Positions 760 through 6,051 of a stretch of DNA of 6,051 nt are shown here, one piece after another (the first letter of the stretch is position 1; every line of letters starts with the position of its first letter). The translations under genes and the position numbers were made by a program. The stretch is from sequence record NC_007824.1; one strand, 5' to 3'. The notes below the pieces were generated by a model. That model saw nothing but the letters and a program-made list of their open reading frames with translations. It had not been told where the DNA came from and did no database searches. Source of the stretch: Escherichia phage ID62.

Positions 760-2244
760 ATGGCTACTGAAATTTTCTCTGATGTTGTAAAGGCTGTTTG
801 GTCGCATGCTACGGCTAAGCACGCTCATCTTCGTATGGCTGTTCAGGTTGATAATCGTAGCCGTCTTCTTTCTGACCTCGTTTATCAGTTGGAAAAACGC
901 CTTTCTGAAGAGACTCATTTGGATGATGAGACTCTTGCCGTTTATGAATTTCAGACTGCCCTTCTGGAAGACCATATGGCACTGGTTCGGAAGTGTGCTG
1001 CTCAACTTGATAATAGTAACACTATAGACCACCGTACCCCTTTGGATGCCGAATGTGTTTTTCTGTTTGAAATGATTTGTCCGGGTGTTCGCTACGGTAA
1101 AACGTTGAATTCTCTTTGGACTAAGTATGTTGTTCAATGGCCTGAGAAGTTAATCCGTCAGGAGTTGGACATGGTCAAGCCTTTATCTTTTAAAGATGAG
1201 GTTGCTAAGTACATGGAGAAAATGCAGGAAAAAACACGCAAAAATCGCATGACTCAGAAGGTGATTAATGAGATGCGTATTGCTCACCAAAAGGGCTGGT
1301 TCTTTGTATTTGATACGTTGACTCTTGCTGATGACCGTTTGCAGGCTTTTAATGAAAACCCTAATGCTCTTCGTGATTATTTTAGGACTGTTGGTCGAGC
1401 TGTTTTGCGCGCTGAAGGTCGTTCGGTTAAGGATTCCTACAACGACTGCTATCGCTATCTTTGTGTGCCGGAGTTTGGAGGCCAGCACGGCCGTCTTCAT
1501 TGGCACGTTGTGCATATGGTGCGGACTCTTCCTTTGGGAAGTCACGACCCTAATTTCGGTCGCAAGGTACGTAATTATCGCCAGATTAACTCGTTCCGCG
1601 GTATGTGGCCTTATGGTTTCACGCAACCGATAGCTGTTCGCTATCAACATGATGCTTATTCTCGTAAAGGTTGGCTTTGGCCTGTTGACAAATTAGGAAA
1701 AGCAATGCAGAGTAAGCCGTATCAGGCGGTCGCATGGTATGTGACCAAGTATGTAGCCAAGCAATCTGACCAACGTCAGAAAGCTATTACTGAGAGACAA
1801 AAAAAATGCAAGAATCCACTCATGGCAATCTGTCTGAAAAAGGAATTCAGAGTTCGCAGCAGCCGGAAGCTCGGAATGGAGCTCCCTTCGATGGCTCACC
1901 TCAGCAACAAGGTTCTTCTGGAACTGAGCCGAATCAGCTTCGATTCCAGTCCTCTGTATCAGATAGTGAAAGAGAACGCCAAAAAGCAATTGACCTTGAA
2001 CATCGGCGCGCTGCCTTTGCACGTCATTTTGGATGTGCGCCCGGAAGTGAGAAGTATGTTGAAAAATATCCGTCGTTTGATGAAAAAGACACCCGAGTTC
2101 AATTGTCAGAGTTCTATCGCTTCAATGACGGTCACCTTAAAAAATGGGGATATTTCTGATGAAGCACGTCGATACATTATTGATGCAGGAATTACGCCTT
2201 TTGATTTGCGAGCTAAAGCGACTCAGACTTTCGGCGGTAAGTGA
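760..2244 (+). CDS. A: Replication initiation protein A (HUH rolling-circle endonuclease), 494 aa
   Basis: ATG 760 with GAGG at 747-750; contains HUH motif LHWHVV (His247/His249) and twin-tyrosine motif WYVTKYVAK (Tyr327/Tyr331); region KGWFFVFDTLTLADDRLQAF matches the phiX174 A/A* sequence from memory; contains the origin 30-mer. Confidence 0.95.
   Translation: MATEIFSDVVKAVWSHATAKHAHLRMAVQVDNRSRLLSDLVYQLEKRLSEETHLDDETLAVYEFQTALLEDHMALVRKCAAQLDNSNTIDHRTPLDAECVFLFEMICPGVRYGKTLNSLWTKYVVQWPEKLIRQELDMVKPLSFKDEVAKYMEKMQEKTRKNRMTQKVINEMRIAHQKGWFFVFDTLTLADDRLQAFNENPNALRDYFRTVGRAVLRAEGRSVKDSYNDCYRYLCVPEFGGQHGRLHWHVVHMVRTLPLGSHDPNFGRKVRNYRQINSFRGMWPYGFTQPIAVRYQHDAYSRKGWLWPVDKLGKAMQSKPYQAVAWYVTKYVAKQSDQRQKAITERQKKCKNPLMAICLKKEFRVRSSRKLGMELPSMAHLSNKVLLELSRISFDSSPLYQIVKENAKKQLTLNIGALPLHVILDVRPEVRSMLKNIRRLMKKTPEFNCQSSIASMTVTLKNGDISDEARRYIIDAGITPFDLRAKATQTFGGK
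1003..1032 (+). other. Viral (+) strand origin of rolling-circle replication, 30-mer recognised by protein A; predicted nick between G1009 and A1010
   Basis: CAACTTGATAATAGTAACACTATAGACCAC versus the phiX174 origin CAACTTGATATTAATAACACTATAGACCAC as I recall it: flanking blocks identical, differences confined to the AT-rich spacer. Confidence 0.8.
1213..2244 (+). CDS. A*: A* protein, in-frame internal initiation within gene A (about 343 aa)
   Basis: In-frame ATGs at 1213 and 1222 (MEKMQEKTRKNRMTQKVINEMRIAHQKGW) align with the phiX174 A* N-terminus (MKSRRGFAIQRLMNAMRQAHADGW) from memory; GAGG at 1198-1201 upstream. Which ATG is used cannot be decided from sequence. Confidence 0.45.
   Translation: MEKMQEKTRKNRMTQKVINEMRIAHQKGWFFVFDTLTLADDRLQAFNENPNALRDYFRTVGRAVLRAEGRSVKDSYNDCYRYLCVPEFGGQHGRLHWHVVHMVRTLPLGSHDPNFGRKVRNYRQINSFRGMWPYGFTQPIAVRYQHDAYSRKGWLWPVDKLGKAMQSKPYQAVAWYVTKYVAKQSDQRQKAITERQKKCKNPLMAICLKKEFRVRSSRKLGMELPSMAHLSNKVLLELSRISFDSSPLYQIVKENAKKQLTLNIGALPLHVILDVRPEVRSMLKNIRRLMKKTPEFNCQSSIASMTVTLKNGDISDEARRYIIDAGITPFDLRAKATQTFGGK
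1806..2159 (+). CDS. B: Internal scaffolding protein B, 117 aa, encoded inside gene A in a different frame
   Basis: C-terminal EFYRFNDGHLKKWGYF matches the phiX174 B C-terminus (AEFYRFHDAEVNTFGYF) from memory; ATG 1806, TGA 2157-2159. Confidence 0.9.
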   Translation: MQESTHGNLSEKGIQSSQQPEARNGAPFDGSPQQQGSSGTEPNQLRFQSSVSDSERERQKAIDLEHRRAAFARHFGCAPGSEKYVEKYPSFDEKDTRVQLSEFYRFNDGHLKKWGYF

Positions 2245-2503: not shown

Positions 2504-2962
2504 ATGTCTAATCTTGTTGCTACTGATGTTAACTTTGCTACCTCTGTTGCCGCTCTGAAGATGCTTCAGTCTTCTGCTGTTCTGGATATTACCGAGGAGG
2601 ATTTTGATTTTCTGACTGGTGATAAAATTTGGATTGCTACCGACCGCAACCGTGCGCGTCGTTGTGTTGAGGCTTGTGTTTATGGAACGTTGGACTTTGT
2701 GGGATACCCTCGCTTTCCTGCTCCTGTTGAGTTTATTGCTGCCGTCATTGCTTATTATGTTCATCCCGTCAATATTCAGACAGCCTGCCTCATCATGGAG
2801 GGCGCTGAGTTTACGGAAAACATTGTTAATGGCGTCGAGCGTCCGGTTAAAGCCGCTGAACTCTTCGCGTACACCTTGCGTGTTAAAGCCGGACTTAAAG
2901 AAACGGTTTTGAATGCTGAAGAGAATGCTCGCCAGAAACTTCGTGCAAGTGGAGTAATGTAA
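2504..2962 (+). CDS. D: External scaffolding protein D, 152 aa
   Basis: Long stretches match phiX174 D from memory (RARRCVEACVYGTLDFVGYPRFPAPVEFIAAVIAYYVHPVNIQTACLIMEGAEFTEN); GGAG at 2494-2497, ATG 2504. Confidence 0.97.
   Translation: MSNLVATDVNFATSVAALKMLQSSAVLDITEEDFDFLTGDKIWIATDRNRARRCVEACVYGTLDFVGYPRFPAPVEFIAAVIAYYVHPVNIQTACLIMEGAEFTENIVNGVERPVKAAELFAYTLRVKAGLKETVLNAEENARQKLRASGVM
2682..2912 (+). CDS. E: Lysis protein E, 76 aa, overlapping D in another frame
   Basis: MERWTLWDTLAFLLLLSLLLPSLLIMFIPS matches the phiX174 E transmembrane domain, including the proline at position 21; the ORF track's GTG 2619 start is upstream of the homologous Met. Confidence 0.85.
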   Translation: MERWTLWDTLAFLLLLSLLLPSLLIMFIPSIFRQPASSWRALSLRKTLLMASSVRLKPLNSSRTPCVLKPDLKKRF

Positions 2963-2963
2963 T

Positions 2964-3038
2964 ATGAAGAAAATTCGTCGTTCTCCTTCTCGTAAGAAAG
3001 GTGCTCGCCTCTGGTATGTAGGCGGTTCTCAGTTTTAA
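2964..3038 (+). CDS. J: Small basic DNA-binding/packaging protein J, 24 aa
   Basis: MKKIRRSPSRKKGARLWYVGGSQF; the C-terminus matches phiX174 J (KGARLWYVGGQQF); starts 1 nt after the D stop; shorter than the 38-aa phiX174 J. Confidence 0.9.
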   Translation: MKKIRRSPSRKKGARLWYVGGSQF

Positions 3039-3043
3039 TTGAT

Positions 3044-3057
3044 GGGGCTTCGGCCCC
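3044..3057 (+). terminator. GC-rich stem-loop with UUCG tetraloop in the J-F spacer (mRNA-stabilising or weak terminator hairpin)
   Basis: GGGGC-TTCG-GCCCC, a 5-bp G/C stem closing a cUUCGg tetraloop, followed by AAGGA and the F start; no T-run follows. Confidence 0.5.
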
Positions 3058-3072
3058 TATAAGGATTTATAA

Positions 3073-4356
3073 ATGTCTAATGTACAGACTTCCGCTGAAC
3101 GTATTCCCCATGACCTGTCTCATCTGGTTTTTGAAGCAGGTAAAATTGGTCGCTTAAAAGTTGTTTCTTGGACTCCTGTTGTTGCAGGTGATTCTTTTGA
3201 GCTTGATATGGTTGGCGCTATTCGCCTTTCTCCGCTTCGTCGCGGTCTTGCTGTTGACTCTCGCGTTGACCTGTTCACGTTCTATGTCCCTCACCGTCAT
3301 ATTTATGGTGAAGAGTGGATTCAGTTTATGAAAGATGGCGTTAATGCTAAACCTCTTGCACCTGTGACTTGTTCGCGTGGTTGGGATAGTGCTCAGTATT
3401 TAGGTACAATCCCTTCCAGTACCCTTAAGGTGCCTAAATTTCTTCATCAAGGTTATTTGAATATTTATAATAACTACTTCAAAGCTCCGTGGATGGATGA
3501 CCTGACTTACGCTAACCCGTCCAATATGGAAGGTGAAGACGTTCGTTTTGGTGTTCGTGCTTGTAACCTGAAAACTATTTGGACTGCCCCTTTGCCTCCG
3601 GGTACTGAAACTTCTCATTCTATGAAGACTGAGGCTAACTCTATCGATATTATGGGTTTACAAGCCGCTTATGCTCAATTGCATACTGAGCAGGAGCGTG
3701 ATTACTTCATGACTCGTTATCGTGATATTGTTAATGAATTTGGTGGTAGTACTTCTTATGATGCGGATAATCGTCCTTTGCTTGTTATGCATTCTGAGTT
3801 TTGGGCTTCAGGCTATGACGTCGACGGCACCGACCAAAGTTCTCTCGGTCAGTTCTCCGGACGTGTACAGCAGACCTTTAAGCATTCAGTACCGCGATTC
3901 TTCTGTCCTGAACACGGCACTATGTTCACGCTTGCACTGGTCCGCTTCCCGCCAACTCACGAAATGGAGATGCATTACTTAGTTGGTAAAGAGGATTTAA
4001 CTTATACTGATTTGGCTTGTGATCCAGCTCTGATGGCTAACCTTCCTCCTCGTGAGGTTAATATGAAGCAGTTCTTCCACTCTGGCGATGCTAATGCCAA
4101 GTTTAAGATTGCTGAAGGTCAATGGTATCGTATGCAGCCTGACCGTGTTGCGTTGCCGTATAACTATCTTGATGGCTTCCCGTTCTATAGCGCGATTCCG
4201 TCTAGTGATATTAAGCAGCGTGTTTTGGTCAATACTGACAACTACGATGAGGTTTTCCAGTCTATGCAGCTTGCTCATTGGAATATGCAGACTAAGTTCA
4301 ACTGCACGATTTATCGTAATATGCCGACCACTCGCGATTCCATTATGACTTCTTGA
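3073..4356 (+). CDS. F: Major capsid protein F, 427 aa
   Basis: Length and position after J as in phiX174; AAGGA at 3061-3065 with 7-nt spacing; sequence resembles phiX174 F from memory. Confidence 0.97.
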   Translation: MSNVQTSAERIPHDLSHLVFEAGKIGRLKVVSWTPVVAGDSFELDMVGAIRLSPLRRGLAVDSRVDLFTFYVPHRHIYGEEWIQFMKDGVNAKPLAPVTCSRGWDSAQYLGTIPSSTLKVPKFLHQGYLNIYNNYFKAPWMDDLTYANPSNMEGEDVRFGVRACNLKTIWTAPLPPGTETSHSMKTEANSIDIMGLQAAYAQLHTEQERDYFMTRYRDIVNEFGGSTSYDADNRPLLVMHSEFWASGYDVDGTDQSSLGQFSGRVQQTFKHSVPRFFCPEHGTMFTLALVRFPPTHEMEMHYLVGKEDLTYTDLACDPALMANLPPREVNMKQFFHSGDANAKFKIAEGQWYRMQPDRVALPYNYLDGFPFYSAIPSSDIKQRVLVNTDNYDEVFQSMQLAHWNMQTKFNCTIYRNMPTTRDSIMTS

Positions 4357-4362
4357 TTATGT

Positions 4363-4376
4363 GGGGCTTCGGCCCC
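4363..4376 (+). terminator. Second copy of the GGGGC-TTCG-GCCCC stem-loop, in the F-G spacer
   Basis: Identical 14-nt hairpin to 3044-3057, again followed by AAGGATTT and a start codon. Confidence 0.5.
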
Positions 4377-4392
4377 CTTTAAGGATTTGATT

Positions 4393-4938
4393 ATGTTTCA
4401 AGTTTATGTATCTAAGCATGTTGCCCCGTTCACTTCTAAGAACCGTGCCTTTTCTATTTCCCCTGCCGCTAACCCGCAGGTTGTTAACTCTGGTGAGATT
4501 GTTGCAGGTCGCTCCACTTTCCGCGTTGCGTCTTCCATTGGCGCTGCTTCTAATGGTAGTGGTTTTGCGTTTGTTCAGATGATGGACCCCAATTCTCCTG
4601 ATTCTCAGCAGGTTTTCTCTGTTGCTGCTTCGCTGTCCTTTAGTGTTGACTCGAATTACATTCCTTGTGTTGTTCGTTTTGAGAGCACTGCTGCTCAGCC
4701 TACTGGTTTTAATATTGCAACCTCTGATTTCATTCCGGTTGAGGCTTCTGCTCTTTCTCCTCGTGCGCTTAGTGTTCGCGATTGTGTCACTGTTGATGTT
4801 AAGCCTCGTGCTGAAGGCAATAATGTCTTTGTTGGTGTGGTTTTCTTCTCTGCCTCCGCTAATGCTGGTAATGTTACTGGTGTTGTTTCGATGGCTCAGG
4901 TTGACCACGAAGTTACAGCTTTGCAGCCGCTTAAATAA
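4393..4938 (+). CDS. G: Major spike protein G, 181 aa
   Basis: MFQVYVSKH... aligns with the phiX174 G N-terminus (MFQKFISKH) and ends in ATVLQPLK-like TALQPLK; AAGGA at 4381-4385 with 7-nt spacing. The ORF track start at 4387 is TTG. Confidence 0.92.
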   Translation: MFQVYVSKHVAPFTSKNRAFSISPAANPQVVNSGEIVAGRSTFRVASSIGAASNGSGFAFVQMMDPNSPDSQQVFSVAASLSFSVDSNYIPCVVRFESTAAQPTGFNIATSDFIPVEASALSPRALSVRDCVTVDVKPRAEGNNVFVGVVFFSASANAGNVTGVVSMAQVDHEVTALQPLK

Positions 4939-5073
4939 AAGGCCGCCGCACTCCCGGTTAGATGCCTGCCCAGTGTAGGGCGGACCGAGCCTTACGGAGA
5001 TACCCGATAAACTAGGAACGCGGAAGGCGTAAGCCGCCTTCCCTCCTGCTAAGCCCAAAGGAGACTTTCAGCT
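4939..5073 (+). other. Structured G-H intergenic region; candidate primase-dependent complementary (-) strand origin and/or post-G terminator
   Basis: An 8-bp perfect stem GGAAGGCG (5022-5029) / CGCCTTCC (5035-5042) with 5-nt loop, plus a second hairpin CTGCCC (4966-4971) / GGGCGG (4978-4983); 135 nt non-coding, GC-rich relative to the rest of the genome. From memory, alpha3, St-1 and phiK place their negative-strand origin between G and H. Confidence 0.4.
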
Positions 5074-6051
5074 ATGATAGGTGCCGTTGTAGGTGGTATT
5101 GCTTCAGCCTTAGCCAGTGGAGCCGCTTCTAAGCTGTTTGGTGGCAAACCTGCCGCTCAAGCCGCTACTGAGTCCTCTGGCCTTTCCAATGGTCAAGGTG
5201 TTATTGGTATGGATAATGATGCCGGTATCCAGTCAGCTATTCAGGGTTCTAATGTTCCTAATGGTCAGATTCCCGCTCCCACTCAGACTGGAGGTGTTAT
5301 GGCTGATGCCAAGAATATGATTAAGAATGCCGGTAAGGATTTGCTTGATGGTGTCATGACTGCTGGTAGTGACCGAGTCAAGCAAGCGTTAGTTGATAAA
5401 TTGAGTGGTAATAATGCAAAGAAACAAGGACAAGCAACCCGTGATTACTTGGCTGCGGCCTTCCCTGAGCTCAATGCATGGGAACGTGCTGGAGCTGGTG
5501 CTTCCGGCGCCGGACTGGAATCTTCCGGTCAGGACCAACAGAAGGAGTTGATGCGTATGCAGCTGGATACTCAGAAGGATATTGCTAAGATGCAGATGCA
5601 GAATAATTTGCAGATTGCCGGTATTCAGTCCGCTACTTCTCGTCAGAACACAAAGGATTCTGTTTATGCTCAGAATGAGATGCTTCAGTACAATCAACGT
5701 GAGTCACAGGCACGCGTCGAGTCCATCCTCGCCAATACTGACCTTACGGCTAAACAAGCTACCCATGAAATTATGAGAATGGCTCTTACCCGTGCTCAGG
5801 AGACTGGTCAGCATTTGACTAATAGTCAGATTATGGCTTTGGAGAAGAAAGTTTATGCAGAAATCGGAAAAATTCATCAAGATACTCAAAACGCTCGCTA
5901 TGGTAGCTCTCAAGTTACTGCTACGGCGAAAGACGTTTCGAACATGATTACTGATGCCGCCTCAGGTTTTGGTGATTGGGCCTCTCAACAGTGGAATTCC
6001 TTCTTTAAGGATGGCAAGTCCAACGGTATTCCTCTTAACACTAGAAAATAA
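5074..6051 (+). CDS. H: Minor spike / DNA pilot protein H, 325 aa
   Basis: N-terminus MIGAVVGGIASALASGAASKLFGG and internal RDYLAAAFPELNAWERAGA, IAGIQSATSRQNTKD and VYAQNEML match phiX174 H from memory; AGGAG at 5059-5063. Confidence 0.95.
   Translation: MIGAVVGGIASALASGAASKLFGGKPAAQAATESSGLSNGQGVIGMDNDAGIQSAIQGSNVPNGQIPAPTQTGGVMADAKNMIKNAGKDLLDGVMTAGSDRVKQALVDKLSGNNAKKQGQATRDYLAAAFPELNAWERAGAGASGAGLESSGQDQQKELMRMQLDTQKDIAKMQMQNNLQIAGIQSATSRQNTKDSVYAQNEMLQYNQRESQARVESILANTDLTAKQATHEIMRMALTRAQETGQHLTNSQIMALEKKVYAEIGKIHQDTQNARYGSSQVTATAKDVSNMITDAASGFGDWASQQWNSFFKDGKSNGIPLNTRK

Follow-up and report, generated by a model that had tools for sequence, protein, structure and literature searches.

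Two similar modules on either side of gene F

The window, by which we mean the whole stretch of 6051 nt that was analyzed, is, as judged from its sequence, a complete alpha3-like microvirus genome (Microviridae, Bullavirinae, Alphatrevirus), and in end-to-end alignment it shares ~92% identity with MG945254, WA45, and WA13, and ~85% with alpha3. All of the annotated genes are encoded on the + strand (Table 1), so the hairpins described here should lie in polycistronic mRNA. The gap between genes J and F (TTGATGGGGCTTCGGCCCCTATAAGGATTTATAA) and the gap between genes F and G (TTATGTGGGGCTTCGGCCCCCTTTAAGGATTTGATT) have a common layout, in which the stop codon of the upstream gene is followed after 5–6 nt by a hairpin with a 5-bp G/C stem, whose UUCG loop sits on a closing C-G pair (C-UUCG-G), and in which the sequence UAAGGA begins 2–3 nt past the hairpin.

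Table 1. Positions in the window of the genes, the two spacers, and the elements within them.
Feature	Position (nt)	Strand	Basis or remark
Gene A	760–2244	+	Homology with annotated relatives
Gene D	2504–2962	+	Homology with annotated relatives
Gene J	2964–3038	+	Homology with WA13 and alpha3 annotations
Gene J stop codon TAA	3036–3038	+	5 nt 5' of hairpin 1
J-F intercistronic spacer, 34 nt	3039–3072	+	Orthologous to phiX174 nt 965–1000
Hairpin 1, GGGGC-UUCG-GCCCC	3044–3057	+	RNA fold, phiX174 identity, stem covariation; stem 3044–3048/3053–3057, loop UUCG 3049–3052
Shine-Dalgarno UAAGGA of gene F	3060–3065	+	7 nt before ATG at 3073; spacing kept in relatives
Gene F, major capsid protein, 427 aa	3073–4356	+	ORF, homology, annotation; one module on each side
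Gene F stop codon TGA	4354–4356	+	Sequence
F-G intercistronic spacer, 36 nt	4357–4392	+	Sequence
Hairpin 2, GGGGC-UUCG-GCCCC	4363–4376	+	RNA fold; Alphatrevirus-specific second copy at the T_F position; stem 4363–4367/4372–4376, loop 4368–4371
Shine-Dalgarno UAAGGA of gene G	4380–4385	+	7 nt before ATG at 4393
Gene G, major spike protein, 181 aa	4393–4938	+	In-frame ORF from ATG 4393, WA13 annotation, protein alignment
Gene H	5074–6051	+	Homology with annotated relatives

A sequence-only reading of this DNA had described the same cUUCGg hairpin on a 5-bp G/C stem in both spacers, with the same ribosome-binding sequence behind it. Both observations are confirmed, the former by the sequence and the RNA fold, and the latter by the placement of TAAGGA 7 nt before the ATG of F and of G. 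The strings that had been quoted as the two spacers are correct in sequence, but they comprise the cores (3043–3068 and 4362–4388) rather than the whole spacers. When these cores are aligned, 25/27 columns are identical, the differences being one 1-nt indel and one A/T mismatch, and an exact 15-nt direct repeat (TGGGGCTTCGGCCCC) occurs in the genome in two copies only (3043–3057 and 4362–4376). With up to two mismatches allowed, GGGGCTTCGGCCCC has matches at two sites only, where 0.01 were expected and where two matches were obtained in 0/200 shuffles. When the J-F module was aligned locally to the remainder of the genome, the F-G copy scored highest, at 22, compared with 10.9 ± 1.3 (maximum 15) for shuffled sequences. 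The two-copy match is well beyond chance.

As RNA, hairpins 1 and 2 have minimum free energies of −10.8 and −10.4 kcal/mol, respectively, with >97% of the ensemble in the fold, and the hairpin has roughly double the stability in RNA that it has in DNA (−10.8 vs. −6.0 kcal/mol). The UAAGGA before F and G is a purine-rich match to the anti-Shine-Dalgarno sequence and lies 7 nt from a real start codon, within the 5–9 nt required of a Shine-Dalgarno sequence, and the genes behind both copies were confirmed as F and G by homology. A search of the whole genome against Rfam, at E-values up to 10, returned nothing at either spacer (and four chance snoRNA/lncRNA hits elsewhere), and neither hairpin is annotated in the public records inspected. 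A literature search on the alpha3, WA13, and phiK spacers, with Kodaira et al. (1992) outside its reach, found nothing relevant.

Several other features of the genome were observed in passing. Genes D and F have a common start, ATGTCTAAT (Met-Ser-Asn), after AAGGA(G/T)TT, and through the segment at 2485–2514, which has 67% identity to 3054–3083, repeat family D1 gains a weak third member. Gene D has no hairpin before it, and its likeness to F is probably that of a common ribosome-binding and start context, and not a third copy of the module. Just 5' of gene A, a near-consensus sigma-70 promoter (TTGACA, 18-nt spacer, TATATT; 11/12 matches) at 697–726 adjoins an 11-bp hairpin followed by TTTTT at 727–751, which is the same overlapping pA-T_H layout as Logel and Jaschke described for phiX174. 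The H-A region (~760 nt) also contains two + strand ORFs, at 24–434 (136 aa) and 524–700 (58 aa), that are kept in alphatreviruses with 75–87% and 88–97% amino-acid identity, respectively; in most relatives the alignment of the 136-aa ORF is full-length, but in alpha3 and St-1 it is partial. Neither ORF has a match in PHROG, and hypothetical proteins are annotated in this region in the Lilleven and MG945254 records. A 233-aa antisense ORF on the minus strand (4357–5058), which runs across gene G and the F-G spacer, was rejected as a gene: it is closed in alpha3, NC3, and MG945254, it has no PHROG match, and its open frame probably results from codon composition.

Distribution of the hairpins among the Bullavirinae

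Hairpin 1 is identical at 14/14 positions to nt 970–983 of phiX174, which lie in the orthologous J-F spacer (GGGGCTTCGGCCCC), and from this identity it appears to be the ortholog of the phiX174 T_J hairpin. The published T_J signal bases are the third and fourth bases past the 970–983 hairpin in the phiX174 sequence, and this location directly 3' of the hairpin ties T_J to it. A hairpin is present at the J-F position in every bullavirus examined, mostly in the cUUCGg form. In three G4-like genomes it is the same as the phiX174 14-mer, while GGGGGC-UACG-GCCCCC occurs in one G4-like genome, GUGGGAC-CGCG-GUCCCAC in G4 itself, and GGGGG-CUUGU-CCCCC in a divergent IMG/VR bullavirus (L041; IMGVR_UViG_3300005306_000004). 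In the J-F spacer of this divergent genome, CAACTTGATAT is found directly before the hairpin, just upstream of locus position 401, and we take it to resemble the core sequence at which gpA cleaves the phiX174 origin.

Within the alphatreviruses, the J-F stem varies (GGGGC/GCCCC, GGGCC/GGCCC, a 6-bp GGGCCC/GGGCCC type, and GAGCCC/GGGCTC in St-1) and the loop is constant, being UUCG at both sites in 18/18 genomes. When 14 distinct hairpins from across the Bullavirinae were aligned, the compensatory changes in the stem comprised a G-C/C-G flip at two pairs and a change from G-C to A-U at one pair (St-1). Pairing is retained in 90.5% of cells, compared with 73.5% after shuffling, and none of 500 shuffles attained the covariation score of 0.423, which is also well above that of all slid registers. 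Taken together, the compensatory changes and these pairing and covariation statistics indicate that the hairpin structure is under selection and that the loop sequence is specifically held. The distance from stop codon to stem is 4–7 nt in most genomes, with as many as 12 nt in the two that diverge most, and the Shine-Dalgarno sequence lies 5–8 nt from the ATG across relatives.

In phiX174, leaky rho-independent terminators (T_J, T_F, T_G, and T_H) are located in the J-F, F-G, G-H, and H-A gaps, and T_J, T_F, and T_G each block 20–40% of transcription (Logel and Jaschke, 10.1101/2020.03.05.979765). According to a statement in PMC3335065 that cites Hayashi et al. (1983), the messages with their end at T_J have the highest stability and decay faster once T_J is disrupted. 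In a set of 16 viable machine-designed phiX174-like genomes, T_J carries no mutations (10.1101/2025.09.12.675911). The element described here resembles phiX174 T_J in its J-F position, its identical GGGGCUUCGGCCCC, its start ~5 nt past the stop codon of J, and the F ribosome-binding site that comes next. It differs in its 3' tail, which is UUACUUGA in phiX174 and UAUAAGGA here, the latter being still less U-rich, and in its ribosome-binding site (GAGGA in phiX174, UAAGGA here). The J-F hairpin is the counterpart of a well-studied phiX174 element, and as such the finding is real but largely ordinary.

The F-G module has a narrower distribution. A cUUCGg hairpin with TAAGGA, in a spacer of 33–37 nt, is present between F and G in 18/18 alphatrevirus genomes examined, of which 10 are WA13-like (the present phage, WA13, WA45, ID21, ID32, NC3, NC28, NC29, NC35, and MG945254) and eight are alpha3-like (alpha3, St-1, phiK, Lilleven, and four metagenomic genomes). 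For this sample, a metagenome scan with a G-protein profile gave two loci, and IMG/VR gave 19 bullavirus loci that are mostly copies of known isolates. The module is absent from the phiX174-like and G4-like genomes, in which the F-G spacers are unrelated and 110–136 nt long; the corresponding spacer of the divergent IMG/VR bullavirus is 85 nt. Relatives with unrelated sequences at these two positions would have counted against the sequence-only reading, and here the two sites differ: at J-F, a hairpin, mostly cUUCGg, is present throughout the Bullavirinae, but at F-G the module is confined to Alphatrevirus.

In G4, the F-G spacer is annotated with the RNA primer and origin of complementary-strand synthesis, and in phiX174 it contains the primosome site (PMC3606162). 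In the present phage, the structured G-H spacer (4939–5073, 135 nt) has 79% identity over 125 nt to G4 3891–4012 and 92.5% identity to the G-H spacer of alpha3. This homology to the G4 origin spacer places the alphatrevirus origin cassette in G-H, one gene further downstream than in G4. The same spacer has an AAGGAG ribosome-binding site of its own for H. The intergenic cassettes of bullaviruses can accordingly be viewed as modular, with the origin in F-G (G4) or in G-H (alphatreviruses), and with the vacated F-G gap of the latter holding a module like that of J-F.

By analogy with phiX174, hairpin 2 may act as the alphatrevirus functional stand-in for T_F, a role suggested by its position and its likeness to the J-F hairpin, and not by orthology to phiX174 T_F, to which it is unrelated in sequence. 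It shares with the phiX174 and G4 F-G regions its location after F and before G and, in common with T_F, a presumed second step in the transcript gradient. The spacers themselves differ, being unrelated sequences of 110 nt (phiX174) and 136 nt (G4), as opposed to a 36-nt near-copy of the J-F module here. For annotation, the gain is that the J-F hairpin of alpha3-like genomes can be labeled as a T_J ortholog and the F-G hairpin as a putative functional stand-in for T_F. The element is of a known kind with a clade-specific second copy, and it opens no new biological question.

Origin of the F-G module

The similarity between the two spacers of one genome is 34/43 in the present phage and 35/39 in phiK. 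In a metagenomic genome of the alpha3 subclade (IMGVR_6142), TAA-TCATGGGCCTTCGGGCCCTTTAAGGA and TAATTCATGGGCCTTCGGGCCCTTTAAGGA are identical at 29/30 columns, with the unconstrained flanks included. This likeness from stop codon to Shine-Dalgarno sequence, along with the restriction to one clade, leads us to favor, on balance, an origin of the F-G module as a duplicate of the J-F module. The sequence-only reading, in which a cassette was reused rather than two spacers having evolved independently, is supported by the clade restriction and by the 35/39 and 29/30 identities, while the occurrence of convergence in unrelated phages weighs against it.

The competing account, which concerns the question of origin only, is that the spacers evolved independently and converged, such that the F-G module is no duplicate of the J-F module; we regard this as the less probable account, although a serious one. 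A 5-bp G/C stem, a cUUCGg loop, and UAAGGA together define a very small optimal sequence space, in which repeated identical solutions are expected, and the exact 14-mer (GGGGCUUCGGCCCC) is found in at least 120 IMG/VR loci. Among 125 IMG/VR sites sampled, a Shine-Dalgarno sequence and start codon come next in 36 (29%) in the UUCG sense and in two on the opposite strand, and at least four T occur in the next 6 nt at 55/125. The 3' arm together with TTTAAGGA is found at 25 IMG/VR loci, 14 of which are non-bullavirus, most of these 14 nevertheless having the full stop-hairpin-TTT-AAGGA-ATG layout; complete modules with this layout are present in unrelated, non-microvirus contigs, and the 3' arm with TTTAAGGA is also matched by more than 120 bacterial contigs, especially of Lachnospiraceae (the matches listed are IMG/VR loci L191–L270 for the 14-mer, and genome_contigs loci L069–L148 for the 3' arm with TTTAAGGA). 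On these sequence matches, the combination of hairpin and Shine-Dalgarno sequence is a generic phage device that has been invented repeatedly, and its recurrence in unrelated phages means that common descent is not proved solely by an identical hairpin and Shine-Dalgarno sequence. Convergence is also compatible with the present phage, where the flanks outside of the hairpin and Shine-Dalgarno sequence are loosely similar (TTGAT vs. TTATGT, and TAT vs. CTTT). It accounts less readily for the alpha3 subclade, in which the identity between spacers reaches into unconstrained flanks (29/30 columns in IMGVR_6142 and 35/39 in phiK), and for the limitation of the F-G module to a single genus whose F-G gap lacks the G4-type origin cassette, a pattern that fits a single replacement event.

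The two stem types of one genome usually agree in the WA13-like phages. Seven WA13-like genomes have stem type A (GGGGC/GCCCC) at both sites, and NC29 has type A at F-G and a 4-bp variant of type A at J-F. NC28 has type B (GGGCC/GGCCC) at both sites, and MG945254 is the only WA13-like genome with mixed A/B stems, while the F-G stem of the alpha3 subclade is always type B. These stem types fit a series from B/B through A/B to A/A, with a new J-F stem acquired first and one base pair of the F-G stem then flipped to conform to it. One reading of this series is that the two modules form a two-copy repeat family kept alike by gene conversion or template switching (concerted evolution) in a 6-kb ssDNA genome, which we consider improbable. 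The chance of a single matching stem flip is roughly one in 12, which is not significant and serves as a hint only, and the matching of stem types is explained equally well by recombination between phages. Trees built from F, G, and D-J conflict with one another among the WA13-like phages, which points to recombination and means that the number of independent stem flips cannot be fixed.

The F protein has 82% identity to that of G4 and 66–67% to that of alpha3, and the G protein has 39% identity to alpha3 G, for which alignment at the DNA level is impossible, whereas the A-C region and the G-H spacer, which flank F and G, are 92–96% identical to alpha3. These sequence comparisons show a mosaic genome. 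As an extension of the concerted-evolution reading, the conserved repeats around F might serve as recombination joints for the swapping of capsid genes between lineages.

Inferred function and its rivals

We consider it likely, on the analogy with phiX174, that both spacers represent one intercistronic punctuation module that acts in the + sense polycistronic mRNA, with the J-F copy being the T_J ortholog and the F-G copy a probable duplicate confined to Alphatrevirus. The module would consist of an extra-stable C(UUCG)G hairpin 5–6 nt past a stop codon and a UAAGGA that is 2–3 nt further on and 7 nt before the next ATG, and it would act in three steps. First, the hairpin would terminate a minority of RNA polymerases, with termination kept weak by the poor U-tract and by the ribosome that terminates 5–6 nt upstream, under which the 5' arm of the stem would be hidden. 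Second, at the 3' ends that arise from termination or processing, the hairpin would block 3'-to-5' exonucleases, so that D-J and D-J-F messages would persist and transcript levels would fall in steps (D/J > F > G > H). Third, read-through transcripts would start F or G from the adjoining strong Shine-Dalgarno sequence, which the hairpin would also prevent from pairing with upstream RNA. The modules had been placed in front of what were called the two most abundant structural genes, which is roughly right for F and G at 60 copies each; J is also present in 60 copies, and the explanation given here is independent of this claim.

The expected activity, carried over from phiX174, is weak and possibly translation-sensitive termination combined with protection of mRNA 3' ends. 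In a statement from PMC4824070, a terminator located a few bp past a gene undergoes nearly complete repression, and repression of terminators close behind genes is presumably caused by the terminating ribosome. The tails are UAUAAGGA after hairpin 1, with two U in 8 nt, and CUUUAAGG after hairpin 2, with three U in 8 nt. Of the features that define an intrinsic terminator, a stable G/C-rich stem-loop is present, but a U-rich tract immediately 3' of the stem is lacking, and a scan for consensus terminators called neither hairpin, the T-tract being too poor. Similar to canonical E. coli rho-independent terminators, the element is a G/C-rich hairpin on the transcribed strand, 3' of a stop codon; it departs from them in its 5-bp stem, in having no U run but two to three U among the first 8 nt past the stem, and in its location 5–6 nt past the stop codon, inside an operon that requires read-through. 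As far as its sequence goes, the element is like a leaky terminator or a stabilizer and not like a canonical intrinsic terminator. The role first proposed for it, mRNA stabilization and translation initiation, fits what has been published for the phiX174 ortholog, but it omitted the other documented activity, partial rho-independent termination, which is that of T_J and, going by position, of T_F.

Conversely, termination may be negligible, and the element may be a stabilizer or an insulator of the ribosome-binding site only. A stricter version of this idea, to which we give a low probability, is that the hairpin is mainly a translation device that insulates the ribosome-binding site of F or G from upstream coding RNA, with both termination and 3'-end protection negligible; in a variant, the hairpin would be a defined 5' structure after RNase E processing, and in either form the device would give high, constant initiation. 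This would suit the poor U-tracts of the present phage, the short distance from hairpin to Shine-Dalgarno sequence in all alphatrevirus spacers, where TAAGGA is at the optimal 6–8 nt from the ATG, and the 29% of GGGGCUUCGGCCCC hairpins sampled in unrelated phage contigs that stand directly before a Shine-Dalgarno sequence and start codon. However, effects on termination and on the stability of mRNA have been measured for the phiX174 ortholog, and 55/125 of the sampled phage-contig sites have a terminator layout (at least four T in 6 nt) in which no ribosome-binding site is needed. The translation role and the terminator or stabilizer role are, moreover, not mutually exclusive.

The strand bias of the 14-mer before ribosome-binding sites (36 vs. 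2) indicates a role that is strand-specific and exerted at the level of RNA. Action of the hairpins in packaged or replicating ssDNA, as SSB-free landmarks, gpA/A* secondary cleavage sites, or packaging or replication signals, is highly improbable, for while the hairpin can form in DNA as well (−6 kcal/mol) and the viral strand is in single-stranded form, the loop is held at UUCG/UACG as stem pairs flip, the phiX174 motif CTTGAGGATAA just past the hairpin is not conserved (TATAAGGATTT here), in other phages' contigs the 14-mer strongly favors the mRNA sense upstream of ribosome-binding sites, and the complementary-strand origin is accounted for in the G-H spacer. The UUCG/UNCG loop family is said, in the work of Tuerk et al. 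from 1988 and that of Antao and Tinoco, to be exceptionally stable in RNA and not in DNA, and such RNA-specific stability agrees with the RNA and DNA energies obtained here (−10.8 vs. −6.0 kcal/mol).

C(UUCG)G tetraloop hairpins of phage intercistronic regions have in common with these modules a C-G-closed UUCG loop, a short G/C stem, and a location between the cistrons of a polycistronic mRNA. They differ in being a class of structural motif and no homologous family, and the likeness to unrelated phages is best read as convergence. Extra-stable hairpins of this kind were reportedly described from phage T4 intercistronic regions by Tuerk et al. in 1988; a T4 review contained nothing on UUCG intercistronic hairpins. 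For the redesign of synthetic microviruses, the punctuation module that we favor would offer a compact part of ~30 nt, in which leaky termination or 3'-end protection is combined with a strong ribosome-binding site.

Three candidates were set aside for the present phage: a gpA/A* cleavage site at the hairpin, as the phiX174 motif is not conserved here; an RNase III site, for which a 5-bp stem is too short; and an outer helix that would sequester the Shine-Dalgarno sequence, which RNA folding does not predict at this F-G spacer. Such an outer helix is predicted in some F-G spacers of the alpha3 subclade, those of alpha3, phiK, St-1, and alpha3-like IMG/VR genomes (e.g., 4359–4391 in L020), where AAUUC, just after the F stop codon, pairs with GGAUU, at the Shine-Dalgarno sequence of G. 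In this modeled fold, the outer helix around cUUCGg could couple translation of G to the termination of F in these phages.
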